Shown piece after piece: positions 32,809 to 64,000 of a stretch of 64,000 bases of DNA. The stretch is taken from NCBI RefSeq assembly GCF_037042905.1, contig NC_087245.1, forward strand, positions 34,412,001 through 34,476,000, read 5' to 3'. Made by a program: the position numbers and the translations under genes. The stretch's first letter is position 1. Each line of letters begins with the position of its first letter. The notes below the pieces were generated by a model. The model searched no databases and had not been told where the DNA came from. It saw only the letters and a list, made by a program, of their open reading frames with translations. The DNA is from Lytechinus pictus. Lineage: Eukaryota.

Positions 32809-34348
32809 TACTAGAACACATTTCAGTTCAGACATCGGAACAGGGAGGATAGATTCTTGCAAAGAGATGGTGAAGATTATCTAAGTGGAACAGGAACCAT
32901 GGACTTGTGGATGGTCCATGTACAGGAACTACGGGTGCTACAGGATCAGGGTCGCAAGATCAAAATCAATGTCTGCAGATCCTACAAAACATGTAGGCCT
33001 AGAGCGATACCGTATCAACTACTGCATTCGGATTTTCATGTGTTCCTACAAAGTTCAAACTTGTATGGAATTATCCCAGTTTACCTTCTTTTTTTTTAAT
33101 ATGGGGGATGGGTTTTCTTTTTAGATCAGACAATAAATATTCAAGGTTCCCATCCATACTTTCTTTAGTAATGGGTCAAGGAGGGATTTTGCATTCTTAA
33201 AAAAAAATATGCAATTTAGAAAATATATACTGCATATAGATACATGACAGGTTAAACAGGGCTAAATAATGATATTAAAAACCTTTATCTAAAATTTCAT
33301 CTTTTGACAAAGAGTAACTTTGAGGTCACTTTTCAATAACAACAACAACAAAATAAACAGTATTTCCACCATCTCTTGTATCGATAAACACAAAGAACAG
33401 CAGTAAAGTTATTTTGAACAACATGCCACCATGAGCCAACTTGTAGACAGTAGCTGGTGGCGCAATCTAATCCCTATCATATTATATCAGTTGTGTATCA
33501 AATTGTAACAAGATATGTAAAAAATATCCTGGATGTGCAGTATTAAATGCTCATCCATGGTCTACGTGACTGAGTGTTGATAAACGCCAATTGGAAGTAA
33601 TTCAGAGGAACTTTCTTCAACTGGATATGCATGTACAAATCTGTAGGCAAAATATTACTAGTTAAAAAATCAAGGGCTATTTAAAGCTCACTAGCCAATA
33701 TTGGACGCTATGGTATTTCAGGGGCATTTTAAAAAAAAATAGTTTTCCAGTGATCTTTAATAAGGGAATTTAAGGGGCAAATTAGCCCCAAATGCATTTT
33801 CTTCTGTGAGGCAAAACCTCTACATCAATAGAGTATGGTATTTGGTATTTGTTTAATATACCTGGATGGGGTTACATGTAGATGCTATTCTAGGGGTTGA
33901 AATCTATCTATTTGATGTCAAAATCTCAGTTTTTGTGATCGTCTTCTAATGTCTACTTTAAAGTTATTCAAATAGTTATGTACATACAGTCATACAAACA
34001 TCACATTCTCCAACATGGTTGAATGAAATGATTACATTGAAATTAAAATAACTGGAAGGTTTCATTCATCAACTGAACGAGATAGTAGTTTTTGCTTTCA
34101 TATCTTTCTGTGGCACCAGGGGCTGTCAACGCAATTGCATCATGTGGTCTTATCTGATACTGAGGTGTAGTATGTTTATTAAACATCTGTCCCAATTCCC
34201 AATTCTATTCTTGGTTCTGATACACGCTCATGCCAACACTACTCACACAATATGATACAGTCAGTGAAAACTTTACGAAAATCAAGATGTACAATGTACA
34301 TGAAGGTTTTTTTTATACTGTACACCCTGATGCAGAATGCATTGCAAT

Positions 34349-34600
34349 GCATTATAAAGACGGAATTCTATCAAATATCATGGCAGTAGCTGTATTTAAT
34401 GGAACACTGTTATAGACAATACTTTTTTATCATTATTTGATCAATATAACATCACCTTTATGGAAATTGTATAGGCATTATAAAGACGGAATTTTATCAA
34501 ATATCATGGCAATTAGCTGTATTTAATGGAACACTGTTATAGACAATACTTTTTTATCATTATTTGATCAATATAACATCACCTTTATGGAAATTGTATA
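34349..34600. repeat. Near-identical 126-bp tandem duplication
   Basis: GCATTATAAAGACGGAATT at 34349 and 34475. Confidence 0.92.
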
Positions 34601-37600
34601 TTTTTTGCATTTTTCTTCTTTTGCACTGATTTATGCAAAAATTATTTTTAATTCATAATTCAGTGCTTTTTCAATAAAATAAATAACAATTCTAGGTGAG
34701 AAAATAGTACTTTAATGCATTATAACAGGCCATGGGCCTACATGTACAGGTATATACCGGTAGTATATAGTAGTACAGTAGCTTTATACATTGGGCAGTA
34801 GGAATGTTTGCTACTGTTCATGCGATTGTCTGTGTACTTGCTTTCCATCAGAGAGATAACGAGTCCTGAACGTGGAAATTGAATTAGCATGTCATACGTC
34901 ATAGCATACCACACTCTATGTAGGTGGAATTGAAAGCAATCCAAAAAGCATTGGCCAGTATTTTGTGGATATGTTTTCATTCCAACAAGGGGAGAAACAT
35001 TCTATATCGCATCATATTCCATTCTTTAACCTGGGTATCTAAAGCTTGCACTCATCGATGGGCTTACAAAGCCTTTTATTTGCATGCATGACTACTAAAC
35101 AGAAGGAACCAAAAGTAAAATGTGAAAAATTGTTTTAATACCAACTAAGAAATATTACAAAACTTTCCCCAGGAATAGACAGTATGACAGTACTACATAC
35201 AGAAGTGACAAAATGGTGAATCACAAAATTCAGTTTAAATATATAATAAGGCCATGGAATTGACCTGTTCAGGTCAATTCCATGGCCTTATATATAGTGA
35301 GATTGAGAGACAGATGCATGTACTACAGGCAGAGGGAAGGGTGGTGGATTGGGGGCCGGTTTTTCAACTTTTATCTTTTAGGGTTGGCAATCATTTATTG
35401 CACACAGTAGCATTTACATCAATCATCATGTCCTTGTAATTATTCTAAATATATAAAAGATAGAGAGTGCAAGAAGCTGTCAATGAACATTGATAATTTG
35501 GGTTTTGATGCATTTAATGAAGGAGGCACATGTACTATGCATAATGACTTTGGACAATACATTGTGAAGACATCTGCAGATCTCAAACCTTGTAGCATAA
35601 CTTGCGTTTAATCGATTTTTTTCATTGATTGTAAAAATAAATATTTTTAAAACGCATACATGGAAAATGCATTTTTTTTTGTCTTTGTGAAAGGCAATTG
35701 TGCAAGAGCAAAGACTCCAAACTTTGCATGAACACAGCAGAGTTTTCAATCATCCGTTTTGGACATGTCTCGTTTTGAATACACTCCAAGTCTGGCCTTA
35801 ACTTCCTGGGTAGAACTCATTGATCTGTGATGTATAGTAGGTGGGCTTAAAAAAGAGAGTTCAAAAATAACAGTGTTTGTGGTCTAATTTGGGTTTATTT
35901 CTTTTGATTGTATTAGAAATTTGATTGAAAGTTTAGAACGCACACTTACAGCTACATTATATGATGTCAATCTATACATATCAAAGGAACATACTGTACA
36001 TACCCTATACAGCATTTGTCTTGGTATCTGCATCAAAACAAAAGGTCTGAGGGGCAAAGACTATGGCATCAACAAAATATTTCCAGCCAAAGAAACAGAT
36101 GATTATTAGTTTACCGAAAATAACACTCCCTCTCCCTATCTCTCTCTCGCCAAAGGCTAACTTGATGAAATATGACATGTACTGATGTACATATGATGTA
36201 GATCTGTGGTGCATTAGCATTTGGAATAGGAATTAGCCAATCATATTGCTACATATTGACTTGTTATGTACACTGTATAGATATTATAAAATTACTCTCT
36301 ATCTGCCATGAATGTGCACATTTTGGCATACATGCACATGAAAGCATTTAACCAACAGTGTGACCTTTCAGATAATGGATGTCTATTCTGTTTGAGCTTC
36401 ACATATAAAATTTAGGGAAGAAAAGCACTACAATGGGCCTACATGTATACATGTTTCATAGATGGTGAATAATTCTTGATACAAAAGCTAAGTGAATTCT
36501 GTTAATTACCGGTAAACAAAAATAATAACAATAAATGGGAAAAATTATACCAAATTCTGGAACTTGTCTGGCTTTGATGAGGAAAAGCCTCTTTCCCGAA
36601 AAAGATGCAATGTTGGATTTGCACATGTACGTATACATGTACAGTGTACATGGTCATATTTCTTTTCATAAAACTCAAGAATAACACACAAGTGAAGCTT
36701 ACTTATAATTTAATAATCCAGGTTTTGATATAGACCACTAATCTGAAAATATGCAGCAATTCAGTTACAATTATCACCTCCCATTCTAATAGAACACAAT
36801 AAATCATTTCATTCGTATGAAATTCATCTCAATTTATACTTGATAATATCTTGATATGGTACTAATTCAATTTAAATGAATTTTATAACAGTACATGTAC
36901 ATCTCTTTCTGATCCTAATTTCATGGATTTACGTCGTAGCACCATTGTGTCATCCATTATAATCTCTTGACTCCCTCAGAACACAGCTGCCGTAAAATTA
37001 TTCCCAAATGACGTTTATCTCCTGATTAATTAGCTCATTTCCCCCACCCAGAATAACTTCCCCAAATCCCCTTGTTAAAAAAATACATGATAAAAACAAA
37101 TACATGTATGCATCAACACTTTATACTCTGAAGGAAATAAGTTTTGATTTTCATAAAATGATTTCATATGCACTGCAGGCCTATGTGTATGATATTGTTC
37201 TTGAAACAATAACCTCCTTCTGCAGGATCATAAAAACACTTTAATTGTTTGGTTTACAATGAATACCCATAACTTTTACTCTTCAAGATTATAAATGTCA
37301 GCAAATTCAGCATTAACTTTGTATGGGTTGTTTGGTTTCACAATTCGCATTGTCTCATAAATGTCATGTATGTCCTGTTTCTTTCCTTCCAATATTTACT
37401 GTATGTGGACCTGCTTCTGCTGGCATTGTGAATGAAGTGTACCAATGAAAACTTCTGAAAACTGGAAAAATAATCCTTGTACATTATACTCTGCATGAAT
37501 GTGCCCAGTGAATTAAAAATCACAAACTTTCTGAGGATAAAGGGATTAAATCAAATTTTATGGAAAACAAATGTAGACTCTCCCTCTTACCTGCTGCACT

Positions 37601-40600
37601 TGATTGCCCAAGTATTAAAGGACAATTATTGAGAGGGTAAAAAAAATTGTTTCCGGTACTGTAAGAATGGAATTCAGAGTCCCTTCCCGTCATTTTCGTC
37701 TACAAAATTTTTAGCATAATTCATGAACAAGAATACTCCAAAGTACAGATTATTTCACTATGGAAAAACTTTAATATAAAGATTTTATTTCTTTTCCTTA
37801 TTTTCATTTTCCTCTAATGTAAAAATCTAAAGGAACCAATGCATTTGTTTCTCTGCAAAAGGCAGTAGGCTATACACTGTACATGTACAATACATGAGCA
37901 TGGAACAGGACTTTATAATGCCTGTTGGAGAAACTGTAAAAAAAAAATCTGTCAAATTTGCCACCTGTGCTATTTATTTCCAACTGAACCATCAAAGATT
38001 AATAGAATGCCATAGCAACTAGGCACTAATGGCAACATCAATGCAAACAAACGCAGGAGTGGCATTGGTGTTCAAATAATTGTACATACAACCCATTGCT
38101 ATATATGTCTGCCTAGAAACAATTAAAGAGTATAATTAGTTTAATAACAAGCATCCTCAGGCTTTACATCAGAAGTATTTAGACCTACAGTCCCTGTACA
38201 TACAATGTACCAAGTGCAAACAAAGAAAATTACAAGTATTTCACTTTTCAGTATAAATTTCAATAGGAATTTGGTGGTGATACATGTAAATGTCTTCACT
38301 CACCACTTCGAGAGAAGAATATAGCAAGGAAAATTTTTCACTTTCTCTTTTCAGTAGTAACCAGTGACACTGTCCCTTTTAATATGTAGCCCTACATGTA
38401 CATGTCGGCCTACATGCATACATTTGAGAGGGAAACCCCGCCAACTCCCCAAACTTTGAGAAGGGATTATGTTATGAATTCATCAGGTAAAACCTACAAT
38501 CTACAAGTAAAGTACACGTAAATCCAGGCCGACAAGTAAATCTTATTATTTCAAAAATAGTAATATCCACAAACTGAAAGGTTAAAATATCATATCATTC
38601 ACCTCACACCCGTTTTCATTGAATTCATGACTGATAATGATATAGTTGCATGGTCAATGTACAGTACATGTATGTTCATTTTCTGTTACTTTTTAAACAC
38701 ATGCATGTACACTGGAGATAAGAAAACTTTTAAAAGGGGGGAGTGAACTGTGTGTGGTCTCTCATTGGCTGTGTGTTATAATTACATAGTCTTAAAATAT
38801 ACATTTTCGGATATCTACTAATACTACAGAGAATAAATTGACTTATAATTGTATTTGTATAGAGAAACTAAAATGTTTTGTAGAGGAAAAGTAATTGTTT
38901 TGCTTCTTAGTACATAATTATTGCGGTATAAATGTATTGAGTAGTTAATTAGCATGTTATCATTCAAGTGGGTCTATATTACTAAACTACACTAGCATTA
39001 TGGGTCAGGAAACTGGCCAGGTATGAGAAGTTGAGGACTCGAGATGGCACTATTGGTTCGTATCTGCTTTAAGAACCAGAAAAGTGTTTTGAATTGATAG
39101 ACCAAACCATTTTTAATATATTCCTGCATTATTACAGTGATAATGCAAGCCAGCACTTTTGCCTGTTTCAAACAACAACCATAATACAAAATAAAGTCAT
39201 ACAAATTGTAATCAGAACAAGGAACTGAGCATAATTATATTCACTGTCTTTAACTCTATTATATAAGATTGTTTGTTAAAATTGGGACATTGCATACTGT
39301 ACATATACGCCTACTGGTAGAGTAGCTTCAATTATATATTTTTTTTAAGGTATGGTAATTTTGTTTTGATAGTTTCACATAAGTGTCAGACAACACCGAG
39401 TCTGAACAGAGCATTGGGTCACATGACCAATATCCTTTCCGTCAGGCTCTTCCTAAAATTGGCACTCATTCCAGAATGTGTCACTTCCTAGATTGAAAAT
39501 GGATTTGGCTTCCAGACTTTGCCTGTAATAACCTCTGCAGCTCTCCCCAATGCCCTCAGATGTGACCCTGTTCTATGGGAAAACTTCCACTAAAAATAGC
39601 TCTTTAAAAAAAAAATTGCTATATACCATTTCTGGCACCTTCCTCTACACTTTTCCCCTAAACTTGCTACAGTACATGTACATGTATATATTTTAATTGA
39701 ATTCTACATGTATGTAATTACAGCATGACCCTTCAATAGGCTATTGGTATACATGTAGAGTACAGAAGATAATCTTTTCCGGTATAATTTCTGATGCATT
39801 TTGTGTGCATTCACCTCCCCAAAGTTCACTTGTGTTTTGTACTTCATACCAGTGATAATGTTATGTAGTGTACATTACCTCCAAGCACCTGATCTTCAGA
39901 TGAATTATAGATCATTATCAAGTATCCTATTATGACTGTTAAAATATTGGCACGTACATCATAACTAGACCCATTTTATATTTTAAAGAATTGAATAATG
40001 AAAAATAAAAGGAAGACAAAGGAGGAGGATAGGATAGCAGAACCTCTATACAGAATGATGAGAATTAGGATTTGAATATGCAAGTGAAAAAATAAATGTC
40101 ATGTACCAGCGTGCATGTACTGTAAATCATTTCTAATTGAAATATTATCAAGTTTATTATATTTCTGTGCTGATTAGGCCTATATGAAATGTATATATAT
40201 TTTATTAGAGTGAATTTGATTGAATTAAAAAGTATTTTCAACATTATATTTGAATGTGATATGTACATGTATCCTACATGTACCAGCATTGCCGGTTTTA
40301 TAGGATGCTTCATGAAGTCGTTTAAAAACCACGGATGTCACAATTCCCTGTTTAAACATTGAAAGAACAATGGCCATTCATCAAGCTCTCAATAAAGGGG
40401 TCATAAATTTTCGCAGAGAACAGCCGAAGCACCTTTTGATTTATCATCTTCCAAAGTACAAAGTCATGACTAACATAATCCCATACACATTCACTTTAAT
40501 TTCCCTGTAAATTACATGGAGTGCCTATTGTGATTCATTTCTGCTGGTAGAGCGAAGCCATACAGCAGGGAGTACCAGTTTACTCTCAATTGGATTATGA

Positions 40601-41214
40601 AGGGAGATGGTTAAAAATGATTTTTTTTTTTCACCGATACTGTTCTATAATCCTCCAATGTTCCAAGATGAATTGGTGGATGGGGCAGGTACATGTATCT
40701 CAGAGACTTTTACACAAATTTGAAAATATCAATGTTACAGAGCTCAGAGATAGACAATCAAAATAAATTATTAATCAATATTAATTTTCATTTCTATTGA
40801 ACTGTGCAATCCGAGGGGATCTAAAACTTTGGACAGGACATATCTTCCGTTTTTTATAAATATGAAATTGAATAGAACAAAAACAACCTAGCATTATTAA
40901 TGGTATACAAAAGTTTTTGCATTCTAACAAAGGTGTGCACACTAGCTTGGAGAACAATACAGTTTAACTCTGCATAAGTCGAAGTTGCATTAGTTGAATA
41001 ATCACAATCACCTTTAATATAAGTCCAAGGCCCAATCCTGGTCACTAGTCTTTTTTTTTCTTTTGTTTTGGACCCATCATAAATAGATTTTTGCGTATTA
41101 GAGTCGAATCTATTTCTTCAGTCCCCACAGACTCGACTTATGCGGATTTAATTGTACGTACATGTAGTGAAACTGGTACGGAGTAATATCCGACTTGATG
41201 ACATAAGAGGTCTG

Positions 41215-41477
41215 GGCCCCGTCTTACAAAGAGTTCAGATTGATCCAATCAATCGTAACTCTATGGAAATCCATCAGTGTCATAATTTTTTCTACAGGAA
41301 ATTTGCAAAATATCCTTTGTAAACAAAGGATAAATTGTCAAGAAATCAATGAATTTATGGATATACATTCATATCTAAAAAAAAATTTGAACAAACATGC
41401 ATTTTATATGTTGACTTTGCTGGCTTTCCATAGTTGCAATTGATCGGATCGGTCGCAACTCTTTGTAAGATGGGCCC
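41215..41477. mobile_element. PIF/Harbinger-like MITE with CTG TSD
   Basis: CTG|GGCCCCGTCTTACAAAGAG ... CTCTTTGTAAGATGGGCCC|CTG. Confidence 0.82.
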
Positions 41478-42471
41478 CTGGTCTTACCACGCTCCTCAAA
41501 CTAACAACTGAGAACATGCATTGTCAAAGCCAAGCACTTGCCTCTCATTCGGGTTAAACTCAACGCATCACTCATCCTGAGCACTCCTTCATTACGGCTA
41601 AATTCACAAATTATCACTCGCAGGCAATCGCGGCGCTGCGGTCATTAAGAGGCACAGCTTCGCCGTGGTGATAATCACTATGCACAACCTCCAGGGGAAT
41701 GAGACGCTAGGAGACGCAGCGCGAGGAAGTGCGAGAATCAGGTGACAAAAAATCCCATACATTTTTTTCGTGGCAATGTTACCTTATCCCCACAATTTTG
41801 GAGAAGAGGACCTCCTTTTCTTTTCGTATGATCGGATGCGCCTGTGGGGGGAAACGGGGATGAAGTTGTGAATATTCAATTGCTTTGTGTGGATATCTTG
41901 GTCTTCACTCATGCGTAAGGTGTGTGTGCATGTGCAATGCCTCTTTGTTTTGAGCTATCCTATCAAAACAAATCTACAATGTATTTCAGACACCTCACAT
42001 TACATTATCATTTCTCGTTTCTCAATCTCATTCATATCAGCTGAATGCCATCAGTAATGACCATGAAAAATGGAAATTTGAACAGGACACAGGAGAACCT
42101 TCCAATGGAATATTGTAGACTTCATATGATCACTTGATGTTTGATGTAGTACATACAATCGACTGATTCGGTTTGGGTGCTGTTTTCATAAGGGCTGGGA
42201 CTAAAACCCGGGTCCCGCACAGAAACCTCGGGTACCCGGGTAGAAAAATCAATACCCGATACCCGAAAATTGCTTACCCGTATAACGTATATGTATTTGA
42301 TTTGTATTGCGTAGTGTAAGACATGATTGTAACTCATAACAGTACACAAATCTCATCTTGAATCTCGCCAATCTGGGAGGTTTCAAGATGATCTTTGCAC
42401 TGACATAGCAACACACCTGACTTATTGCATAATCTATTGAAAGTGATTTTGTTCTTCTTTGGGAGCCCATA

Positions 42472-42924
42472 CACACCGTTCTCACTACCTTCCTGAAACT
42501 AGTTTCCTGGAAACTAGTTTAGTGGAAACTAGTTTAACGTATAATGAGAACTGTCAAAGCGATCTTCCAAACTTATTCATAAAACCACCTCGCGATGTAG
42601 TTTTCAGGATCGCTTTGCCTCGTTAAACTGGTTTTAGCGTAAAAAAGGACACAACCGTTCTTCAGGAAGTGATCTTCGCACATTTTGAGCGCGCTACTCC
42701 ACGCACTGTGTGTAGAATGCCTACGCCGCGGTTTCAAATTTCACCCGAAAACGTGTCACCCCACTGAGAGCGTTCCCAAAGCAACGAGATCACTTTACGT
42801 GAAGTGATTTTGAAAACCACTTTCGTGTGATCAAATGGGAACGCTAGCAGAGCGATCTTCTAAACTGGTTTCCTGAACCGGTTTCCAGTAGACTAGTGAC
42901 AGAAAGCATAATGAGAACAGTGTC
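42472..42924 (+). mobile_element. ~450-bp MITE, copy 1 of 3 (GACACCGTTCTCA TIR family)
   Basis: ACACCGTTCTCA ... TGAGAACAGTGTC; colinear with 55209-55658 and reversed relative to 51668-52115. Confidence 0.85.
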
Positions 42925-42974
42925 CTAGTTATGGCTGCTAAAGAGGCTTCCCATGAGCAGCCATGTTGAAAAGA

Positions 42975-43419
42975 ATCCCTGTTAAATTACGAGAATATTT
43001 TTAGGCTAAAAAATACCCATTAATTATTCCTGCATTCACACCGCCCCGAAACATACCCTTCGGGATAAATTCCTGAAGTTAGGAGCATGCGCAGTATGGT
43101 CTAATAAGCAGGCAAGGCGCGAGATTCAAAACCACTAGCCCAGCAGCCACCCACGGCGCCCGCGCCCAACGACACGCTTGGCTAAAAGTTCCCGTAAATT
43201 GCTTTCACATTGCCAAAATACCTGCGACCTTGGAAAAATCCCCGCGAAAGTTCTCGTAATTTCGCCAAGTACCTACTATTTAGCGGGTATTATCTTTCGG
43301 GGAAATTACGCGTAGTTTGCTTTCACATTACCAAAATACCTGGTATTTTCTGATCGGGGTAAATTTCCCGATCAGAGAATACCTGGAACTGACGAACTTC
43401 GAGGCGGTCTGAAACCACC
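42975..43419. mobile_element. Truncated MITE with repeated GC(A/T)TTCACA modules, inside a smaller inverted-repeat element
   Basis: Terminal GAGGCGGTCTGAAACCACC; the flanks GAGCAGCCATGTTG (~42955) and CAACATAGCTGCTT (~43435) are inverted. Confidence 0.5.
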
Positions 43420-44095
43420 TATTGTTACATCCTCCAACATAGCTGCTTGTGACGTCACATGGAAACCCTTAATTAGTTCCAGTGTACTGGAAGTAAATTT
43501 CATCTGTAGAAGTGTCATTATGAAGAAGTATGAACATTAAGAGCTGAACAGATAGTCTCGACCACTACAGTATCAATCTAAAAAAAAAATCAGTCTTTCA
43601 CAGTCAAGGAGGTACTGAATAGGATGAGGACCATTCATGAGGACCGGCCGAGCTATAATGTGGGCTGTAATTGTGGGCCCTGTATTGCATGTAGTTTATA
43701 ATCAAGTTTTTTGTCAGTTTTCTATAATTGATTGCATTGATTATTATGTATGATCTATGGTAAAAAAAATCAACCCCACTATCAATCGCTATAAAGCTTT
43801 ATATCTATACGAAGCCTTGCAATTATCAGGACTGATGTAGTCTTCTAGATTGCTTTGCTGCATACATGTAGATCGGTTTAGGATGTAATGAGGACGGAAA
43901 CCACACCGCAAAGTGGTCTACATGAGGAAGTATAAATTGTGTGATTTGTGGGAAATTATTGGGTGGCCAAGAACAATGCGTCAAGTTTGTATACCATGAG
44001 ATTGATTGAGTCGCACTCCCGTGACTGCCCCAATAGCAACAACAACTTCACTGATGCTGCAATGTGAACAGAAAGGAAGCATACCTCTGGATCTG

Positions 44096-44266
44096 GGGCC
44101 TGTTTGATAAAGAGTTGCAAGGACTTGCAACTGTTGTAACTTTGCCATTATGGCAACTACCATGGCAACCTTGATTCTGATTAAATTGGCTGCTGAGCCC
44201 TGTTGCCATGGTAGTTGCCATTATGGCAAAGTTACAACAGTTGCAAGTCCTTTGTGAAACGGGCCC
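44096..44266. mobile_element. PIF/Harbinger-like MITE with CTG TSD, almost fully palindromic
   Basis: CTG|GGGCCTGTTT...GGACTTGCAACTGTTGTAACTTTGCCAT / ATGGCAAAGTTACAACAGTTGCAAGTCC...AAACGGGCCC|CTG. Confidence 0.82.
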
Positions 44267-52115: not shown

Positions 52116-53191
52116 TTATTCATCTGCCTACCAAAGAAAAAAAATGCAAGAACATGATCAGGCCTACAAGTAGCTTCTGTAGGCCTATCCTAGTAAATTG
52201 TTTGTAGTCAAGGAGTGTGTATCTCAGTGTATTATTGATGTTCATGGCTCCTGTTTTTTAAGTTTCTACCAGGTAAACATTTCGGGAGCAAACTTGCCAA
52301 AAGTATCAGTGTAATTTTTTTCCCTGCATATCAAAAACCATTATTCAATGTTCAATATTTTTCATTATATTACCCAGCATTACAAAGTTCTCAAAATTTC
52401 CTTTCAAACACCATAGCAGGTCCATGCAATTACCTATGCCTTGGGAGAAATTTCGAACTCTAAAAAGTACATGTACATTTTAAGGTACTACATGTACATG
52501 TAATTGGGAATGCGGGTATAACTATATTGCTTGTAATGGCCTACTGCCCCCAAAAAACTTTTCTTATACCTGATCAGAAAATACAAGATGTGTTCCTGGA
52601 TGGGCGGGAGTGAATATGTTTCATGAGGTTGCTCATAGAGCCTTTTCAAAACAGTATTGAAAAGACCTGAAATGTAAAGCCATATGAAGACTATTTGGGC
52701 TCCTCAATGAGATCAAGAATGGCAAGGATTCTTATATAAAAGCTCTTTTATTAATTGATCTATGGTAACTGGAAAGCTTATAATGTAATCTGTTTTTGTA
52801 GACTCCAATGTGAAAAGGGGCATCCAAGTGAACAAACTCTGCGGACTTAAAAAGAGATTTATATGGATTCACAGTATTTCACACTGCAAGGCTTTCTCAT
52901 GTCGGCCTACATACAGTATGTTGGCCTACATATTAGGTGCAGTACATGTACATGTAAGTACAAAATTATTGACCTGACGTCCTCACATTTTGCAAAGTAT
53001 AGTGAAAAACTAAGGAAACTTGAGATGTTTTATATTACTAAATGGCTGTACAACTCAAGAAAAATATTCATATCATTTTCAGCTATCAAAATACAATTGT
53101 TTGAAATATAAAAATGTACATGTATCCCTATAAATTGCATTTTGATATAATGTGGGCATTGGTGATTTTCTACTAATAAACCACTTTCTGT

Positions 53192-53464
53192 GGAGCGTTG
53201 TGGCCCAGTGGATTAGTCTTCGGACTTTGAAACAGAGGGTCGTGGGTTCGAATCCCAGCCATGGCGTAATTTCCAGCAAGAAACTGATCCACAGTGTGCT
53301 GCACTCAACACAGGTGAGGTAAATGGGTACCGGTAGGAAGTAATTCCTTAAAAAGCTGTGTGCGCTATGAACGCCTAGCTTAGCCGGGTAATATAGGAGC
53401 GCCTTGAGCACCTAACAAGGTGGATATGTGCGCAATATAAATATCCTATATTATTATTATTATT
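53192..53464 (+). mobile_element. tRNA-derived SINE, apparently full length
   Basis: Pol III A box TGGCCCAGTGG (53201-53211), B box GGTTCGAATCC (53245-53255), central CAGGTGAGGTAAATGGGTACC segment and (ATT)n tail. Confidence 0.9.
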
Positions 53465-55208
53465 CTGATTTTGATTACAAAACTCTCTGTATACATGTAT
53501 ACAGGGAGAGTTTTGTAATGTAGGCTACTGACTTCTCAGAAGAAAATCAACTAAAGACAAATAAAATCTGTGAAACCAAATAAATCAACAATAGGCTACG
53601 TGTATATCCTGGGTGAACATTAATCTTCAAATTAATGATTTTATATGTCATATTGGCAAGTTTGACAGATGCAGTAGGCAATATCTCAGTTTAGTATTTC
53701 AAAATGCATTTATCTTATTTCAAAGTTTGATAGGTCAGTCCCAGCCAAGAGAGATCATCAACACTGAAACCAGTGAATGGGAAACCAGTTTCCTTCACCA
53801 ACATCCTTATAAATCACTTTACATGATCCCAGGAAGCTTCCTCTTCAGAAAGAAATTTATGACTTTATGAGTTCGTCCTCACCAGCTACACATAAGTTTG
53901 CACAAACTCAAGATTCCATTCTCTTCTCTCTTAATATTCATGTAGGCGTACATGTACGTACGTACGAGCCATACTCTCTTTTAAGAATTATTTCTCTCTC
54001 CAAAACTGGGCTGAGTTCAGGTAGGCCTATTTAATACGAGTGAAGGGGAGGGTTTTTTTTTAGTTGTTACCATTACCAAAATGCTTTTGGCTGATTTCGA
54101 GACAGGGCTTTTGTCTTGGCTGTCACCTTGGACCTGAAATAATAACCAGCCTTCGGATACAAGACCCGTGCGATTCTTCTGATATGTAACTTGAACCAAC
54201 AATGGAAAGTTCTACATGCGACAGTACAAACCTATTTTCTCCGAACAGTGCACTTTTATCATTCATGAGCGAGATGAATAAGTCGACTACCTCCATGTAC
54301 ATTTTGTGACAATACCAAAGATATGCATGATGAAGCTCAAGAGCGCATAACTTTGTCAATGCCATGACCTACATCATCGGAAATCTAAATTTTGATTTTT
54401 ACTGTTGTGCCCTTTAATGATTAGAGTTTACTTTAATGACAAAATTACCATAAATTCAAGTACTTTTTAAACCCCAATGTGACAATTCCCTCTAATAAAA
54501 CTATCAACATCTCAATAAACATAGTGGACAATGTAGGCCCTATGTGCACAGGATTTAGACAAATTCTACAAGTTTGCAGGTCTACAATGTACACTCTTGT
54601 GTACATGTAGATGTAGGCCTACAGCCGTGAAGTATACCATCACAAAGCCAACATGAACTCGTTCGTCATCATGAAGTATTGAATCTTTTGATTGTCTCTC
54701 TGTTGATCTAACCTTGCTTTGGGTTTAGTAGCAAATAAACTTTAGGTGAGAATTTAACCTATCACTTCATGTACATTGAACGTGTACACTGTACATACAT
54801 ATACTGTACATGTAGGTCCATGTGCAGTATGAATTTGTAATGAAAAGTTGTAATGGTTCACTCCTGATGATCAGTGATCATGGCAACATTTTAGTGGGTT
54901 GTACCAGGGAATTGCTAGTGGGTTTTAACTACAAGTATTCTCTGATCGAACACTGTCAGAAATGATATCCATGGGGGTAATAGTGAGTAATGCAAACAAA
55001 GTGTGAATGTTGCAAGGTTTGCCATGTTTGGAGAGAGCTCACTCTGAAGATGAAACACCCACAGACCTTCACTGTTTACTCATGGAGGTAGTGTGAATCA
55101 TGCAAGTACTATGCATCTTCTTGGAAAAGATCATTGACCATACTGATCACTATTGTGTACATGTACACAAGTGCCATCATATCCTATCTGTGGTGAGTTG
55201 GTATCATT

Positions 55209-55658
55209 GACACCGTTCTCACTACTGTCCTAAAACTACAGTGTAGTTTACTGGAAAATACAATTAACGTGTAATGAGAACGGTCCAAGCAGTCTTGGAA
55301 GCGATCTTCCAAACCGGTTCAGAAAACCACCTCACGATGAAGTTTTGAAGATCGCTTTGCCTCGTTAAATTGGTTTTAGCGTGAGGACACCACCATTCTT
55401 CAGGAAGCGATCTTTGCACATTTCGAGCATGCTACTCCACACACTGTATGTGGAATGCCTACGCTGCGGTTTCAAATTTCGCGCGAAACATGTCACCCCA
55501 TTGAGAGTGTTCCCATAGCAACAAGCCCACCTTAAGTGAAATGGTTTTGAAAACCACTTTCGGATGATCGAATGGGAACGCTAGCAAAGCGATCTTCCAA
55601 ACTGGTTTCCTGAACCGGTTTCCAGTAAACCTGTTTTAGAAAGTATGAGAACGGTGTC
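55209..55658 (+). mobile_element. ~450-bp MITE, copy 3 of 3, with 3-bp TSD ATT
   Basis: ATT|GACACCGTTCTCA ... TGAGAACGGTGTC|ATT. Confidence 0.88.
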
Positions 55659-56334
55659 ATTTGACTTCCTGACAAAAGGGGCATGACACAGAGGTTTAGG
55701 GCATACATGTACATAATGTACATTTCAGAGTTCAAGTTTAGGAAAAAGTGTACAGGTACATGTACATGAAGTTTCACTTAATAGACATTTAAAGGTTGAG
55801 TCAATCATTCATTGCCATTATTTCACATGTAGGCCTACCTACATATATACTGACAATAATATCTTTAAGAACTGTAACATTGTATATGTGCCGATATTGC
55901 TCAAGGATGACAAAGTTACAACTGATGTACATGTAAATGTAGCCTACATCAAGTGTATGGAAAAAGAGTGTAAACTATGCTCAAAGATTGCTGACTGCCA
56001 CTGTACATGTACATGCACAAACGAAAAATGCTTTTAAAAACAAAATAAATATTAATTTAGAAAACTATAATATTCGATGCAATATTATCAGCAAAACTAC
56101 AGATTGACAACAAAGGTCTGACATGGACATGTACATGAAAATTCAACTGAATTATCAGGAACTCTGAATTTTAATCCCCTACATGTATACAGTATGTAAA
56201 TGTTATGTACATTTTGATGAGATTCCCCCAGTAGCCTTTACATTCAGCAATGTTGACATTGATAGCAAGGCAATAGGGATGTTTATGAGTGAATGAAATG
56301 AAAACATCAGTAGTTTTATTGTATCCCTGAAGAA

Positions 56335-56865
56335 GTGAGCTTTATTGTATCCCTGAAGAAGACGTGGGATTTACGTCGAAAATTTGGACTTGGAAATAAA
56401 CTCTGTTGGAACTAGTATAATGCATGACCTCTTTGCCTCTTATATAAATCAACACTTGATTTCAAGAAAGAGTGATTTTGGAGGTCATTGTCATCTCCTT
56501 TTATTGTAAATTTGTTTCATGATACATAGGTCTTTATCCATTATCTCATTCTTTTCACGCACTTTCATGAATGTGGTTGCGTCATTAGCAAGTTACTATG
56601 ACATAACAATGATGTCCTCACTTACGCAATAATATTTACAGCCTGCGACTCAAGTATGCTTTCATTATGATGGTGATGCTTTTTTAACCTGCACGTTTCC
56701 ATGACTACCATAATCATGAATACATCTATTATTTCACTTGTCATATTATCTTGTCACTGTGAGCTTTGTATCCCTGACGAAGACGTGAGGTTTACGTGGA
56801 AAATTTTGACTTTGAAATAAACTTTGTTGGAACTACAATGCATTTACCTCTTTGTCTCTTATATA
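56335..56865 (+). mobile_element. Penelope-like/retrozyme-like remnant with ~110-bp direct terminal repeats
   Basis: Direct repeats at 56335-56446 and 56759-56865, each CCCTGA(A/C)GAAGACGT...ACGT(C/G)GAAAATTT...AATAAA. Confidence 0.65.
56347..56390 (+). ncRNA. Candidate minimal type I hammerhead ribozyme (second, degenerate copy at ~56768-56810)
   Basis: CTGAAGA (56353-56359), stem II GACGT/ACGTC, GAAA (56378-56381), palindromic AATT in place of stem III, short TCC/GGA stem I. Confidence 0.55.
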
Positions 56866-57990
56866 TCATATATATATTCTATGGGAAGCATCTGACTGTT
56901 TGCATAGTTTGTAAACAGTCATTCATGCTGCCAGGTAAAATTCAACAGAAGTAATTGAAATATTTTCCATAGCAATGACAATTATTCAGTGTAGATACTG
57001 AAGAGTGTATGGCAGTGCCAGGTTATTTTGATAATGTGAGGATTTTTCTTTCCTCAAATAATATTGGGTACTGAGATTTTTGTATACATATAGACTTCTG
57101 CAGTCCTACATGTACATGTAGGACCCACGACCCAGAACTCTCTATTTCAAATACTACATGCACAATAAATTGAGCTGAAATTTTTAAGCGAAAAAAAAAA
57201 AATTCTACAAATAATACTTGAAACACCAAAGAGGGTTCATCGCTCCCCCACCCCAATGTAAGGTGCTTCCCCTACATGAACATATGCCCCAAATAGGTGA
57301 ATAAAAATAATACTGCATTCTAGCACATGTTTCTTTTGACATGGGAGATCTACAATTTATTACATGTGGGCCCTACATGTATATGAAGGACAAGGCTCCT
57401 GTGAAGATACCAGTGGCTTGAAAGATGACGAAAAGAGAAGAGTTGTGCTGGAAAATTCATAGAGTGCCGGGTGAAATTGGGCATGTAATTTGAGTCTGCA
57501 GTAGTGATTTGAGCATGTCAATATTGGGCGCCTATAATGAACTTAGAGATATGATATGAAATATTGAGCAGACGGGTGCACAGGGGGGAAGCATTGATAC
57601 AGGGCAGGGGTAGTAGTCTGAGCAACTCCAACCACCAAGCAACCCACACGAAAGAAAAGTAGTAGTCCATCTAAAAATCATGTATTCCATTCCTCAAGGT
57701 CGTTCTCCTCTTTCCAACACTGTACAGGACACAATTATGCTTTCACTAAATCATCCAATCCTTTGAAATATTTGATTTCCTTCAATTCTTAAAATAACAA
57801 TGAAGACGTCATTTTTTTTGTACCGCACATGTAGTGCTGTTATCGGTAAGAAAATTCTCTATCAATATATATCGCAAAGAATATCTTACCGATATCGACA
57901 ACTATTGACAAAAGAACAGGTGACAATTCTGTTTATTTGTACATGGAAAATCAAAATCAAATGCATTGATTAGCGATGGCACAATACTAA

Positions 57991-58541
57991 CGGTGGTCAA
58001 AATTTGTATCTGCCACTGTACCAACAACGCTTTGAAATCAAAGTTAATCAAATTCAAACAAGTACATAACATATTGAACAAAACATATTTAGCATGAATA
58101 CATCCTAACCTTTCAGGTTATTGGCATTATTTTAAGGTTGAATGAAATTTTATCGATGATTTGGGGGCTTTTTGGACATCGTTCTGAGCAGTCAACAACT
58201 TTCGTCTATCCACCATTTAGGATTTCGTGCAGTTACATCTTCGATCGTAGAGGGCAGCAACAAACAGCCGTGTTGCTTATTCAGTACTTGTTTTGGTAAG
58301 CTTCATATGCTGCGCTTATGAATGTTTTCGATACCATGGAGTCGATGGCAGTTTGGATTATCATGATTGTAGCGAAGTGAGATCTTGTTTTGTGGCTAGT
58401 AGTATTTGTATTTTGTTAAAATTTTGGAGTAATTTCTCTTGCTGTCCTGTGCATTTTGAGGAAAAATATGTTTTTCGTGATTTTCCATGAAATTGAAAAA
58501 GCCACTTTTTGTTTCAAAAAGCTGTTTCTGTGAATTCCGTC
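57991..58541 (-). mobile_element. Diverged, truncated inverted copy of the adjacent hAT-like element
   Basis: Its reverse complement matches 58767-59379, e.g. GGTCAAAATTTGTATCTGCCACTGTACCAACAAC vs GTTGTTGGTACAGTAGCAGATACAAATTTTGACC. Confidence 0.75.
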
Positions 58542-58732
58542 TAAAAATGGCCTCTTATTTATCACAATGTTATTTTATTGGTATTTTATTTCAAGATCAG
58601 CAGAACATGTCAAATAATCAAAGGTCCTGATATTTACATTACCAGTAGTCAAAGGAAGAAAGAGAGAGAGAGAGAAGGGGGATTACGAAACTTTGCCAGA
58701 ATATTAACTATATCAATGCTTGATTTTATATG

Positions 58733-59537
58733 TAGGGACAGTGATTTTCCGCGATCGCGGAAAACGGACGGAATTCACGGAAAGGGCCTTTTGAAACGGA
58801 AAATGGCATTTCAAACGGAAAATCACGGAAAACGTATTTTCCCTCAAAATACACAGTTCTATAGCAACAGAAATTACTCCAAAATCACAACAAAATGAGA
58901 ATATTAAATGGCCAAAAAAACCCAGAAAATACGATCTCACTTCGCTACTATCATGACAATTCACACATCGTGACTGCACTCGACATCAGCACACTCGATT
59001 GTACCCCGCTCCATACCCGTACCCCCGGCGCGGCCGGCCGGGTTGGGCTTCACATGCACACATGTATCGTTCAACTACATGTACACAGTTCTGTGTTGCT
59101 GCCCTCTACGTTTGAAGATGTAACAGCACGATATCGTGGTCTTAAAATCCAAGATGGCGGATTGGGAAAAGACGATGACTGATGATAACGATGTCCAAAA
59201 ACCCCCAAAATTATCGATGAAATATCATTTCACCGTGAAATAATGCTAATAATATGAAAGGTGAGGATGTATGCATGCAAAATGGGTGTGTTAAAATATT
59301 TTATTCACCCGCATAGATCCGATTAGAACGGATTTTATTGTGTTGTTGGTACAGTAGCAGATACAAATTTTGACCAGTGCGAGTGTGCATGTAAATGTGT
59401 AAACGGAATTGTCACTTTTCTGTGTGTACAAAGTCTATGGGGAAACGGAATTTCCGTTTTCTGACATGCTGAAACGGAATTTGAGATTTTCTGAAACGGA
59501 AAAGGCAATTTTTTGAAACGGAAAATCACTGTCCCTA
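58733..59537 (+). mobile_element. hAT-like non-autonomous element
   Basis: TAGGGACAGTGATTTTCCG ... CGGAAAATCACTGTCCCTA TIRs, sub-terminal ACGGAA repeats, TATATG on both flanks. Confidence 0.8.
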
Positions 59538-61821
59538 TATATGATTTTAGTGTCTCGGGTGATCAAAAAATATTTAATTGATTATATACAATATTAAAAT
59601 AAATAATACAAACAACAATTCTTTCATAATGAATAAAAGGGGAGGGGTGGATTCCAGAGAAGAATAAAAGCAGTCTAAAATGGTACTGGATTAGTCTACA
59701 GGGAAAGGGTGGCAGCTCCCCCCAAAAAAGAATAAACACAGTCTCAAATATAATGTGTGTTGCTATGTCGCACAAAACATCTATAGGCATCCTTGAAACG
59801 CCCCAGTTAAAAAATTACAATGAAAGGAGCACTGGACCAAATTGTTCTTATCTGCAGCCTTACAATTTTTTCACAAGTTTTTCAAACTTTTGTACCTTTT
59901 CTCCTTCCTTTCCACTCCCTGAGCACGTGATCAATATTCTTAGCTTTTGCGTCACAAAGAGTACAATGAGGGATTCACAAAAATCAGTGAAGTGACATGG
60001 AATATAGCCATTGATGGTCAATCATGCAGTAGTCCTGTTTTTGTGTTTTTTTTATTAGGGGATGGGGTGGGTCACATGTACAGTACACATGGACCCTCAA
60101 AATGGACTCCATGAAATGAGACTAGTATTAAACTAAGGCAAATTCAAATAATAAAAGTGGTTGATTGGACATTCCTTCAGGGATGTACAATAAAACATGC
60201 ACACTACATGATATACACATAGGAATCCAGTTACCTAATTGCTATATGTCTAGAAATCTTCTGGCAATATTTTGAACTACAAAAAGTACACTATGAATAG
60301 TTAAAGCAGGTTTATCGATAATTAATATCTCCTTCCACTTCCAGACCTGTGTTTCATACATGTATGTAGACATACACAAAAACACAAAAGGCCGCATACA
60401 CGTAGGCCTACATGTACATGTAGATCCATGTTCTATTGTTTGAGTTTTCAGAGATTTGCCTCATATCAAATTTTTATTCCAAGGAAAGTTACAGTTAGTA
60501 CAAAGTGATGAAAAAAAGAATGAATGCATATGAGTACACCCAGCAACCTATTCCACCGGTTCCATTTGCTCTGGACAGCGACAATTGCCCGGCTGTAAGT
60601 TCCACACACTTATGGAATGACCAACTTCAACCCTGGATTTAACACTATAGCCTATCCTAAACCTACAAAACCCTATTGCAACCGTATAATACAGAAATAA
60701 AGCAATTGTAATTGGAGCAAATGACATGACAGCATTCCACCAGCATTTTGCATTTCAATTGTTACCCACACACAACCTTAGAGTGTGGTTGGTTGTTGAT
60801 TTTTTTTTTGGGGGGGGTCTTGAAAAAGAAAATGGCAAAACTGTCTGTAAATCGTAAATGCACATGAATAGAATTTGTGAAATGATTTCAAATTCATCTA
60901 TGACCTTGTCCAACACTACATGTACATGTAGGAAAGTCCAGGATAGTAGATCACAAATAGTCTACATGTAGGTTTATTACAAGTAGGTAATAGCCAGCCT
61001 TTGACTTTCCATTCAATTTCTATTCATCAATCTTCTTTGTTTTCTTTCCCAGCACCACTGATATCATGGATTCACATGACAATAAAGTCTGCAAGTTGAT
61101 AATCCAAATCCCCTTTTCCAAGGCAGGGCTTCATAAGCAACAAAAGGAGTATTGATCTTTCCTCTTTCTCGAGTAACAAATACTCAGCAGAAGAGATATG
61201 GCTGCCTACACGTACTATAATAGGCCTTCATGTAGTGTGCATACATGTGGCCTACATAAATGTGGATGTGCAGTGCACAAGAAAACAAAAACTATACTGA
61301 ACGCACACTGTGTACAGAAAGCACAAACTGAAAAACAATCCAAGAAAGTGAGTAAACTGCAAACATATAACAAATACATCTACATGTACAGATAGGCCTA
61401 CATGTACATGTATGTTTGACCAGGAAAAATTTGAATACTTTGAGCTCCAACATGTATGCATACTTCTACATGTATGCAGGGAACACTTCCCTGATGTATG
61501 CATACTTCTTTGCGTATGCTCGAGGCAGTGTATATCCAGCAGACAGACCCGATTCTGTGCCGCCAGAATGAGTTTGTAAGAACCCTTGCGTTACTTTAGT
61601 TGCTTCGCTTCAATATACGGCTGGTACTGAGCCTAACTTGTTTACTTGACAGCCAATCACGGCTCGCCATTTAACGTCCATTGTCTAATCTCAGTTCTAT
61701 TATATACTGTTTTGCTCTAGCGTTAGTCATTCATGCGATTTTACTCCAATGAGTGCATGTCAAAAAGCTTCAGTACGTATGTCCGTTTTTAAAGCTATTT
61801 TACGATTTATGATTTCATGTA

Positions 61822-62030
61822 ACAAAGGAAAGGGGGATGTGACATCATCATCCCACCTAATGAATGACAATGTGCATATAACTAATTTCACAAAATATTG
61901 ATAAACTTTAAAATTCATTGACTTTGTTATTTGTTATCCGATTTTGATTAAATTTTCAGCATTTTGCTCCAGATGTGAATTTTACTCTACTCATTGAGAT
62001 ATAAATATTTTCAGCCCAAACCATCCCTTT
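61822..62030 (-). mobile_element. Kolobok-like MITE fragment related to the 3011-3220 segment
   Basis: TGTGACATCATCATCCCACCTAA...AAATTTTCAGCATTTTGCTC...TTTCAGCCC is the reverse complement of the 3011 element's left part. Confidence 0.65.
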
Positions 62031-62182
62031 TACATGTAATGTGATAAAGTCATTTGATGTCCACAGCCTCATTCATGAACTCCAAATTACCATGACAAAC
62101 CATCATAACCAGCAGGGGTTTTTGTTTTTTATCTGAGATTTCAGCGCAAGAATGTACATGTATGTAATGTACTTTCAACAAC

Positions 62183-62459
62183 AACAAGCTGGGGTGAGCA
62201 CATAATATGCCCACCTGTAACATAGAAAATGGAGTTATTGGTCAAGCAAGAAAAGTGGAAGGTGGCGACTTGCCTTTTTTTTTACCTCAATCAAAGGGCT
62301 TCCTGGGATCCATGCTAGTATCATACACACCAAATTATATGACCCTTGGTTATAAAGTTAAACTGAAGTTATCGCATTTACTAATTAAAGAAAAGTTAAC
62401 GGACAGACAGACACCAAAAGATACCATAATAAGTCCCGTAAGGACGGGCGTATAAAAAA
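62183..62459 (-). mobile_element. Short HINE-like element, same family as 3219-5686
   Basis: AACAAG...GAGCACATAATATGCCC...GGGATCCATGCTAGTATCATACACACCAAATTA...GACGGGCGTATAAAAA. Confidence 0.8.
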
Positions 62460-64000
62460 TGTTAAAATCTATCTTCAAAAGATAAAGCTCGTCGAAAATG
62501 CTCACAAAGCGATTTGCTTGAACATATTATTTTTGGACTGAAAAACAATTATCATGAGACCTAAGAATAGAAGACTTGAGATGTAATTTGTGAAACATCA
62601 AGAGAAGTGAACCAACTCAACTCAATTACATGAGCTGCTTTCATTCCATGGGTTTACTTTTGATTTAGCCAATATTAGTCCACTAACTCAATACACTGTA
62701 CATAGCAGAAATTTGTACATTTACAGTTTACCCCATGCTACGTTGCCTCGGATGCTCTCACAGAGGAGCTATCTCTTTTTTAATAAAAAGCAAACATGCA
62801 AGCGAGCCTCTTCCATAAACCTCTTCTGACAAGCATCTAATGATTTTGTTTGCTAAACAATCTCAATGTCTGTGGTAACTGGTAAAGCACAGAAAAAATC
62901 TTTATTTCTCTTTCGTTATTACATGTAGGGCCGATACACTTGCAATGTACACAGTCCTAAAAGCTGCACAGCGATTGCGGGTGAACATTTTGTTTCATAC
63001 TATGTAGTTGTATGTTTGTAATACTAAAAATGATATAAAAATAATCTTAGATATTTTTATAGAACATTTTCTAAAATAAGATTTAAGAAAAACATCAGAG
63101 GGCAGTGGTAGAAAGGATTTCCAGGTGTATCTATTGAACATTGGGACCAAATATTTCATGATGGTCTGTCTATTAGTATTAAAGAGCAACAAGTACATGG
63201 AAGAATTTATATTTAATGTACAACAGATTTATTGACTTTACTTCAATCAGCTCTACATGTATATATAAACTTAAGCCGTCCAAAAATGATACTCGATTAT
63301 TCTCTGATCAGACCATCAGGCAAGCTCCTGTGCTATAAAAGTTTTGAAAGATTATTCAGTAGACCTACAACTTAACATTTTTCAAATCAGAGTTGCAATT
63401 GAATGTTACCAAAGGCCTAAAATGGGAAATCCATCAAAATATTGGGATGTTGTTTCATCTTCCATGATTGCATCTGTCCATCTGTTTCCCCCTGGTCTAA
63501 GGTCAAGAGTTGAATCTGTGCTACCAACTTGTCTATGGCAGGGATTCCTTTCGTTCTCCCCTGCGAGCCTCTTTCTACATCATCGGTTGCCATCTTGTTT
63601 TTCATTCACCTGGATGCGAGCCATGTCTGTGTTAGTCTTGCTTTCTACACTTTCTAAGGAGGTCTTCGGTACATACAGTACCAGTACAAAAGAGCCCAAA
63701 TAAAACCTTTTGTAAAAGAACGTACACTAAACATTATAAACAATGTACACTTGTACAAGGCTACATGTGCAATGTTCACGTACAAAGACAGCCAACAGGC
63801 AACAGGAATATGCGGTGCTTTTAATACCTTTTTAAAGCCAAAATGGGTGTCACTTTGTACGTAGGTTATGGCTATTACAGAGTTTTCATTGAACATTGCC
63901 CTTCCTCTTGGCACAATTAATGCAAGCCTCTACAGTACGTTGTACATGGACATAATTATCAAAAAAAAGTTAGCTTTCCTATTCTTATCATTATTTTATT

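Follow-up and report, generated by a model that had tools for sequence, protein, structure and literature searches.

What has filled the first intron of a sea-urchin syndecan gene with short palindromes bounded by TA, and why are they concentrated there? The question arises from a stretch of 64,000 nucleotides of Lytechinus pictus DNA (NCBI RefSeq assembly GCF_037042905.1, contig NC_087245.1, positions 34,412,001 to 34,476,000 of the forward strand), hereafter the window. An initial annotation of the window described the syndecan intron as densely marked by such words, or scars, and proposed a region-biased mutational process acting at TA. Positions are given in window coordinates, so that negative or larger values lie beyond its ends. 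The explanation that accounts best for the whole of the data, held here with moderate confidence, is that the scars are footprints of TA-targeting cut-and-paste transposons and that the traffic of elements with CA..TG ends is raised downstream of certain gene starts.

Scar fields downstream of first exons

The most frequent scar is TACATGTA. Several dozen copies had been seen by eye in about 30 kb where about one was expected; the interval 33,880-63,950 contains 68 starts of the word against an order-0 expectation of 1.0. The rest of the window contains 13, one of these at 33,873, and the impression that scars are sparser in the first 30 kb is borne out by the difference in density (P=6e-12). 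Other words follow the same distribution. TAGGCCTA has 11 copies in the interval and 3 elsewhere in the window, and TACAGTA and TACTGTA together have 21 copies there and 7 in the remaining window. TACCGTA/TACGGTA has a count of 0 in the interval and is not enriched; the CC..GG class is present as TACCGGTA. The six clusters listed by the annotation are all found in the sequence as described.

Enrichment of TACATGTA persists through order 4 of a Markov background, the comparison that the annotation had proposed. Expectations in the interval are 1.0 (order 0), 2.9 (order 2), 7.3 (order 3) and 21 (order 4), the backgrounds being trained on the interval itself, so that order 4 soaks up the motif; at every order the word ranks first among 8-mers. 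Genome-wide, there are 224,046 copies in 811.7 Mb (0.276/kb), compared with an order-0 expectation of ∼28,000 if the 36% GC of the window is assumed. When the 16 palindromic TA-nnnn-TA words are tested in 182 kb of scar fields, three stand out by their observed/expected ratios (TACATGTA 37, TAGGCCTA 22 and TACCGGTA 17), and the remaining 13 have ratios of at most 5.5. TACACTGTA is observed 12 times against 1.5 expected, and TACAGTA 38 times against 19.6.

The gene and its field are laid out as follows.

69,174-69,109 (beyond the window end), minus strand: syndecan exon 1, 66 coding bp, signal peptide
31153..64000, minus strand: syndecan intron 1, in-window part
33873..64000, no strand: scar field, in-window part, with 69 TACATGTA plus TAGGCCTA, TACCGGTA, TACWGTA and TACACTGTA/TACAGTGTA
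30999..31152, minus strand: syndecan exon 2, the first internal exon, with Ser-Gly sites
28668..28708, minus strand: syndecan exon 3
26777..26987, minus strand: syndecan exon 4
25012..25178, minus strand: coding part of syndecan exon 5, transmembrane segment and cytoplasmic tail (PF01034)

The region had rightly been assigned to a syndecan intron; it corresponds to the central and distal portions of intron 1, which runs from 69,108 to 31,153 (37,956 bp) and carries 91 TACATGTA, or 2.4/kb. The field proposed at 33880..63950 exists, but not its boundary, since it continues past the window to 69.1 kb. The peptide of exon 1 matches the N-terminus of two other sea-urchin syndecans. This exon is absent from the best protein match, named at its source syndecan-like [Lytechinus pictus], the model of which begins at an in-frame ATG upstream in exon 2. 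The first scar lies 232 bp into intron 1, and the field declines over ∼35 kb and fades ∼2.7 kb before exon 2.

That the process is region-biased also holds at a larger scale. In 464 kb around the window, a background of ∼0.2/kb is interrupted by two dense fields, with 161 TACATGTA in 58.8 kb vs 81 in 405 kb. The second field, 130 kb away, follows the first coding exon of an exostosin gene (PF03016, PF09258) on the plus strand and fades ∼7 kb ahead of its exon 2. Both fields have a sharp edge. Counted per 4 kb across exon 1, TACATGTA numbers in syndecan are 1 and 1 upstream, then 17, 13, 9, 11, 5, 13, 5, 11, 5 and 3 downstream; in the exostosin gene they are 0 and 0 upstream, then 21, 14, 7, 14, 10, 4, 0, 2, 1 and 2 downstream. 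The 8 kb upstream and the 8 kb downstream of exon 1 contain 2 vs 30 copies in syndecan (P=2e-7) and 0 vs 32 in the exostosin gene (P=2e-9). As the two genes have opposite orientations, the asymmetry of the fields follows transcription.

It is scarcely credible that replication slippage, CpG decay or base composition generates the word, even though the fields are CpG-depleted and short (TACATG)n arrays do occur. The order-4 background leaves the enrichment standing. Among 137 arrays, 115 are single units, 20 double and 2 triple; ten chains combine different core types, and the triple repeat is fourfold more frequent in the TA-to-TA phase than in a shifted phase (449 vs 113), all of which speaks against slippage. 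TATGCATA, an equally likely product of CpG decay, is not enriched (11 vs 8.8 expected), and control regions that are equally CpG-depleted contain 24 TACATGTA in 125 kb, which argues against composition. The earlier idea that scars seed (TACATG)n repeats is in keeping with arrays that grow unit by unit. Three mixed chains lie in the window.

48065..48107: mixed chain ending TACATGTACATGTAGGCCTA, read as footprints of two end types sharing a TA
60398..60422: mixed chain TAGGCCTACATGTACATGTA
61381..61412: mixed chain TAGGCCTACATGTACATGTA and one further single scar

Insertions at TA and their matching element ends

Copies of the same repeat with and without a scar reveal the ancestral state. All-against-all comparison of the examined DNA, in which a site was kept if at least 60% of the other repeat copies lacked the word, yields 22 scar sites in multi-copy repeats that are absent from most other copies, many of them with gaps of exactly 5, 6 or 7 bp. 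At three such sites, the gap is exactly 6 bp in 34/35, 32/33 and 24/31 other copies; a 5-bp gap is found for TACAGTA and a 7-bp gap for TACACTGTA. The flanks lack the inserted bases, for example at site -184,690 (3/3 copies). Because the other copies of these repeats carry bare TA, the scar words are insertions, and the copy comparisons agree with the original claim of discrete insertions at pre-existing TA. Five sites in the window illustrate the classes.

30943..30950: TA to TACATGTA in a palindromic repeat, 6 bp missing in 2/2 other copies
31510..31518: TA to TACACTGTA, 7 bp, in one arm of a palindromic repeat
50100..50107: 6-bp insertion giving TAGGCCTA in one internal-repeat unit of the 49,077-50,952 element, compared with the neighbouring tandem unit
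55235..55243: TA to TACAGTGTA, 7 bp, compared with a related copy at 52,086
4128..4134: TA to TACAGTA, 5 bp, outside the field, missing in 3/3 other copies

Four of the six insertion sites first put forward (30,943; 31,510; 50,100; 55,237) are clean, and two are compatible with insertion without being clean. At 18,567 the scar is absent in 3/3 copies, yet the gap is never exactly 6; at 30,917 the gap is 6 bp, but the other copy has no TA at that position. An ancestral bare TA, in a flank that has no CA/TG, is not what slippage predicts, and the paralogue alignments largely refute it.

Some of the repeats compared are of interest in their own right. The 1.9-kb element at 49,077-50,952 ends in inverted repeats of 282 bp and contains degenerate units of 189 bp. 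A tandem array at about -200,000 to -158,800 consists of kb-long units that are 77-91% identical, one of which has a clean insertion of TA to TACATGTA. Reads of 4/12 runs over 52,130-64,000 give 12 indels among the matches listed, all in high-copy repeats, the mapping being swamped by repeats; among those listed, no pair of empty and scarred alleles is found. At 53,189-53,462 lies a very high-copy short repeat, across which contigs of two runs from different organisms join without the repeat; it is a recent, probably polymorphic insertion.

The donors of such insertions can be sought from their ends. The enriched cores CATG, GGCC, CCGG, CWG and CACTG match the TA-flanked ends CA..TG, GG..CC and CC..GG of elements in the same genome, all three types being found in the search for Tc1/mariner/pogo families that the annotation had suggested. 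Among CA..TG ends, a young Tc1 family of 1.9 kb has TA-CAC..GTG-TA ends, ∼200-bp inverted repeats and 364-aa open frames; its copies share 99.3-99.8% identity and have TA at either end in 31/32 scored cases. Many copies of this family are inverted dimers with two facing transposase halves 1-2 kb apart. DDE_3 matches in the genome number at least 150, of which many lie in open frames of 364 aa, and DDE_1 matches number 76; judged from these frames, a competent transposase is predicted to exist. Non-autonomous families with TA-CAG..CTG-TA ends, one of Tc1 type (MITEs, miniature transposable elements with inverted repeats) and one Tigger-like, have 5,000 and 1,270 matching ends, respectively, the second pattern with 392 control matches. 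GG..CC ends occur in a TA-flanked pogo-like element of 7 kb (C1:3,057,078-3,064,077), with 42 matching ends in the genome and broken frames matching HTH_psq, OTU and PHD; it is possible that this element carries a chromatin-reader domain. CC..GG ends occur in Passer-like elements (BrkDBD, HTH_Tnp_Tc5, DDE_1; TA-CCG ends) and in short MITEs.

Since the enriched cores equal the ends of Tc1/pogo-type elements, the scar words are very probably excision footprints of transposons; TACATGTA is the usual scar of Tc1 and Tc3. The preference for particular targets points the same way. Target bias around the scars is palindromic, with A at -3, a pyrimidine at -2 and avoidance of T at -1 (P about 1e-14 to 1e-21), and survives the removal of chain-like flanks (A at -3, 0.45 vs 0.30; T at -1, 0.15 vs 0.33), as expected of a transposase. 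The annotation had left room for two mechanisms. Repeated transposon insertion and excision is retained; as each of the three enriched cores has its counterpart among the element ends of this genome, there is no need to invoke an unknown TA-directed insertion mechanism.

A related proposal is that 4-base cores of fixed sequence are added at TA by a host activity linked to transcription, for instance a repair polymerase or a transposase that is domesticated or abortive. The remark that scars far outnumber visible donors is confirmed by the counts (224,046 vs 5,000 and 1,270 ends for the two CA-ended families counted), and this ∼35-fold excess over the counted ends, the very uniform product and the lack of a donor family that maps to the fields would all suit a host activity. 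It is nevertheless very unlikely: the three cores and the 3-base variants match real element ends, and nothing would lead a host enzyme to copy these.

Place-dependent gain and the missing donors

The generality of the fields was assessed in 10 distinct loci with a triple scar, the first of those listed for one contig (C1). Nine of these lie in fields (13-100 TACATGTA per 20 kb vs 5.5 expected), and in three the field begins at an identifiable 5' gene end. At locus L126, a first-exon-like ATG with a splice donor is followed by scars that start 170 bp on; another field starts at the 5' end of a gene with a weak UQ_con match, which we take to be a ubiquitin-conjugating-enzyme gene, and another at the 5' end of a HEAT-repeat gene, presumably importin-beta-like. 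Fields tend to begin at gene starts, and not every gene has one.

Within fields, the gain relative to outside is 13.6x for TACATGTA, 2.7x for TAGGCCTA (P=0.0015) and 3.9x for TACCGGTA, and the first two differ (Fisher P=2e-7), although field limits set using the motif itself inflate such in/out ratios and the difference is partly due to this ascertainment. Repeats provide another measure. Inside fields, 20.7 kb of repeats acquired 9 scars, whereas 239.6 kb outside acquired 13 (8-fold, P=2.5e-5); when doubles are merged, the field repeats have 6 sites (P=0.003), and gain is overall 5-8 times faster in fields. In the two mapped fields, recognisable repeats contain 0.1-0.5 scars/kb vs 3.4/kb in unique sequence, as scars would accumulate with time. 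The faster gain in passenger repeats indicates a place-dependent mutational process and argues against a selected motif.

A selected protein-binding motif, i.e. an ACATGT-type site kept as regulatory sequence in first introns, would account for a zone tied to gene starts, and first introns are a usual location of enhancers. This explanation is extremely unlikely because the words are newly inserted in recently arrived multi-copy repeats at the faster rate seen in fields, have TA on both sides and are accompanied by the unrelated cores GGCC and CCGG, which mirror transposon ends. Decay products are also abundant, with 0.54 one-mismatch variants per perfect scar. Some scars may later have been co-opted as regulatory sites. 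The mismatch rate also bears on age: under steady accumulation it implies, roughly, a span of 17% substitution per site. The scar process would then be old, and insertions in copies that are 86-93% identical to their relatives indicate that it continued late.

Could the fields instead reflect what selection has left? Full elements might be harmful in 5' introns of important genes, so that excised alleles alone spread. Intact CA-ended elements are not found in the fields, and the affected genes include syndecan, exostosin, a HEAT-repeat import factor and a ubiquitin-conjugating enzyme. This remains decidedly improbable. Selection removes elements and cannot alone lift scar density tenfold above that of unconstrained DNA. 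Moreover, fields tolerate many other repeats, which occupy 8.4/35.3 kb and 4.0/23.5 kb, plus a pogo-like element of 7 kb.

The favoured reading, footprints of TA-targeting elements with locally raised CA..TG traffic, can be worded as a series of steps. An element of Tc1/mariner or pogo type would insert at TA and duplicate it. Staggered cuts at excision would leave two terminal bases per end on the flanks, and fill-in followed by blunt end joining would complete the repair. The products would be TA-CA-TG-TA from CA..TG ends, TA-GG-CC-TA from GG..CC ends and TA-CC-GG-TA from CC..GG ends, with TACWGTA and TACACTGTA/TACAGTGTA as 3-base variants. As each footprint carries two TA in a favoured context (..ATG-TA), later rounds could build single-type and mixed chains. 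In the zone that extends from the first exon of certain genes to 15-35 kb downstream, the flux of CA..TG elements would be about tenfold higher, one or more CA-ended transposases both inserting and re-excising preferentially in the early-elongation chromatin of genes transcribed in the germ line. Given footprints, a cause in such chromatin combined with germ-line expression has slightly better than an even chance. The more far-reaching proposal remains tentative, with the balance tipped somewhat against it: that a CA-ended transposase steered to germ-line-active genes wrote a strand-asymmetric map, tens of kb long, of long-term germ-line transcription.

Several points weigh against the favoured reading, the first being the inflated ratios mentioned above. 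The tie to gene starts is incomplete: five of the 10 triple-scar loci could not be linked to a gene start, one, in the 3' part of a ligase IV gene, is not a field, and in an acyl-CoA oxidase gene the field occupies middle introns, the 6 kb on the side of the gene start being poor in scars. Close to the window, a DUF4772 gene and a zf-CW/SWIRM gene, both CpG-depleted, have hardly any field or none. The suggestion that scars might mark transcribed chromatin has become more specific and remains a conjecture: the strand-asymmetric fields starting at exon 1 fit it, but some CpG-depleted gene bodies, as judged from their sequence, are free of a field. Perfect scars amount to at most 851 bp, or 2.2% of the 38-kb syndecan intron 1; therefore, scars did not build the intron, and the idea that they substantially grow introns is rejected.

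The donor tests are negative as well. In a sample of 40 solo copies of the young Tc1 family chosen among at least 150 matches, none lies in a field, their flanks contain 33 TACATGTA in 153.6 kb (0.21/kb, genome mean 0.276), and the target has A at -1 in 88% of cases vs 32-38% for field scars. For the Tigger-like family, the first 100 ends listed out of 1,270 gave 19 paired copies; none is in a field, and their surroundings have 12 TACATGTA in 38 kb (0.32/kb). The best 20 of 76 pogo loci include none in fields and have 0-4 TACATGTA in 3.4 kb. A convincing TA-CA..TG-TA element was not found within 182 kb of fields, nor was the field donor found among the families tested.

The uniformity of the scars is a further difficulty. 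In C. elegans germ cells, most Tc1 breaks are repaired otherwise, and blunt products prevail only if polymerase theta is missing (PMC4490562); on this pattern, uniform germ-line scars in the urchin need an unusually dominant non-homologous end joining (NHEJ). In a rice survey, clean footprints represent 8/94 excisions, and most events delete bases or add filler (PMC4423477). Given the rarity of clean footprints in rice and worm, the uniformity of the urchin scars needs its own explanation.

Three candidates were rejected. The young CAC..GTG Tc1 family is excluded as the main field donor because both the location and the target preference of its 40 sampled copies differ, and Tigger-like CAG..CTG elements because none of the 19 copies lies in a field. 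DNA methylation alone is excluded as the guide, in view of the scar count in the CpG-depleted control regions given above. Tigger-like copies favour CpG-depleted DNA, with a median o/e of 0.45 vs 0.70 for Tc1. At 35/1,270 Tigger-like and 105/5,000 Tc1-MITE ends, a scar is present within 31 bp, which is 2.5-3 times the genome mean (P=0.17 between them), and such scars often span short (TA)n runs. Their excess near both end types suggests shared, reused local TA hot spots.

That the surviving copies tested are not concentrated in fields may be explained in more than one way. If insertion and re-excision rates rise together, scars would increase while standing elements stay level, which would reconcile the negative donor tests with raised traffic. 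Alternatively, insertion and excision would be even across the genome and the zone would reflect the choice of repair, with NHEJ scars in 5' gene chromatin and scarless repair from sister or homologue elsewhere. H3K79me2 is linked to 53BP1, and H3K36me3 to homologous recombination. Repair choice accounts for surviving elements that are not enriched in fields, and it is helped by the somewhat raised TAGGCCTA and TACCGGTA. Its chance is nonetheless a small one. It predicts a like gain for all end types, which is not seen for TACATGTA and TAGGCCTA, even if partly by ascertainment, and the flanks of scars in fields are unlike those of scars elsewhere (P=0.007 at -1 and -3), which points to different donors rather than a single pool. 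Family-specific traffic is favoured by the unequal gains, by the flanks and by the parallels with Passer and H2Bub1 discussed below; its main competitors are repair choice and selection.

Some neighbouring features deserve mention. A 450-bp element present three times in intron 1 (42,473-42,928, 51,664-52,114 and 55,209-55,658), presumably Harbinger-like, has short inverted ends, 81-86% identity and apparent 3-bp target duplications. Positions 1-535, 544-800 and 1,774-1,899 are occupied by an inverted array with units of 16/42 bp, a tandem repeat of 97 bp and a related 24-bp repeat. Open frames of 1,951 and 1,044 aa at -62,763 to -56,911 (minus strand) and -119,646 to -116,515 look to us like retrotransposon proteins. 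In the acyl-CoA oxidase gene, one exon occurs in two similar copies (L114:342-441 and L114:2003-2102), which in our estimation resemble the alternative exon 3 of vertebrate ACOX1.

Known systems and what the scars may record

Excision of Tc1/mariner elements leaves 2-3 nt 3' overhangs that NHEJ converts into footprints, with Sleeping Beauty and Frog Prince giving C(A/T)GTA (PMC3878927), and Tc1 breaks have 2-nt 3' overhangs (PMC4490562). The urchin scars are alike in the TA duplication with 2-3 terminal element bases, in the words TACAGTA/TACTGTA and in geometry. Tc1/mariner footprints are known from single loci and assays, whereas here ∼200,000 excess copies are fixed. The urchin scars further differ in the dominance of a uniform blunt 2+2 product in the germ line, in their mixed chains and in a roughly tenfold density step at gene starts. 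The rice survey shares the notion of excision as a genome-wide mutational force, deduced from sequence comparison; clean footprints are rare in rice, whereas one precise scar type is overwhelmingly common in the urchin (PMC4423477).

For the location of the fields, the closest transposon parallel is Passer, a member of the pogo superfamily (DD35D) that targets TA and prefers 5' ends of expressed genes, with a bias that grows with expression (PMC9976928). TA target and 5' gene bias are shared, and Passer-like elements (BrkDBD+HTH+DDE_1) occur in the urchin genome. However, Passer inserts on both sides of the start site, whereas urchin fields are downstream-only and extend over tens of kb, and the Passer consensus AAG-TA-CTT differs from the scar preference at -2 (PMC9976928). 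The Passer-like copies of this genome have CCG ends, from which TACCGGTA rather than the dominant TACATGTA would result. A preference for active regulatory regions is likewise seen in ZB (PMC7913693).

The shape of the fields recalls the 5' gene-body domain marked by H2Bub1 together with H3K79me2 (PMC4199367, citing Huff et al. 2010). Like the syndecan field, this domain begins at the promoter and lies wholly downstream of it, reaches its greatest strength in long first introns and declines past the first internal exon. The likeness is one of shape, the urchin side being known from sequence; the exostosin field fades short of exon 2, and that of the acyl-CoA oxidase gene occupies middle introns. 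A start at the promoter with extension downstream only, as in a 5' elongation domain, is seen in the two mapped genes, and among the further 10 loci three agree and two disagree.

The chemistry of the footprints is already known; what is new is the location of scar fields at gene starts. No description of ∼200,000 fixed TACATGTA scars or of 5' fields in an echinoderm was found in the literature, of which subscription journals were poorly covered. Transposon history is usually read from surviving elements. Here, scars outnumber the counted donor ends and sit away from survivors, and standing copies alone would badly misstate both the amount and the place of transposition.

If the fields follow germ-line transcription, they would preserve over long times, in the sequence alone, how transposases were targeted or which repair pathway was chosen along genes. 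Gene starts could be located from them at no extra cost, as illustrated by the field edge that points to the syndecan exon 1 missing from the source model. Where introns are richest in regulatory DNA, the fields would also supply 6-bp insertions. Should the reading of a steered transposase be true, a single 8-mer would reveal gene starts, their direction and their germ-line activity, and the urchin genome would harbour a major localised insertion process with almost no standing elements.

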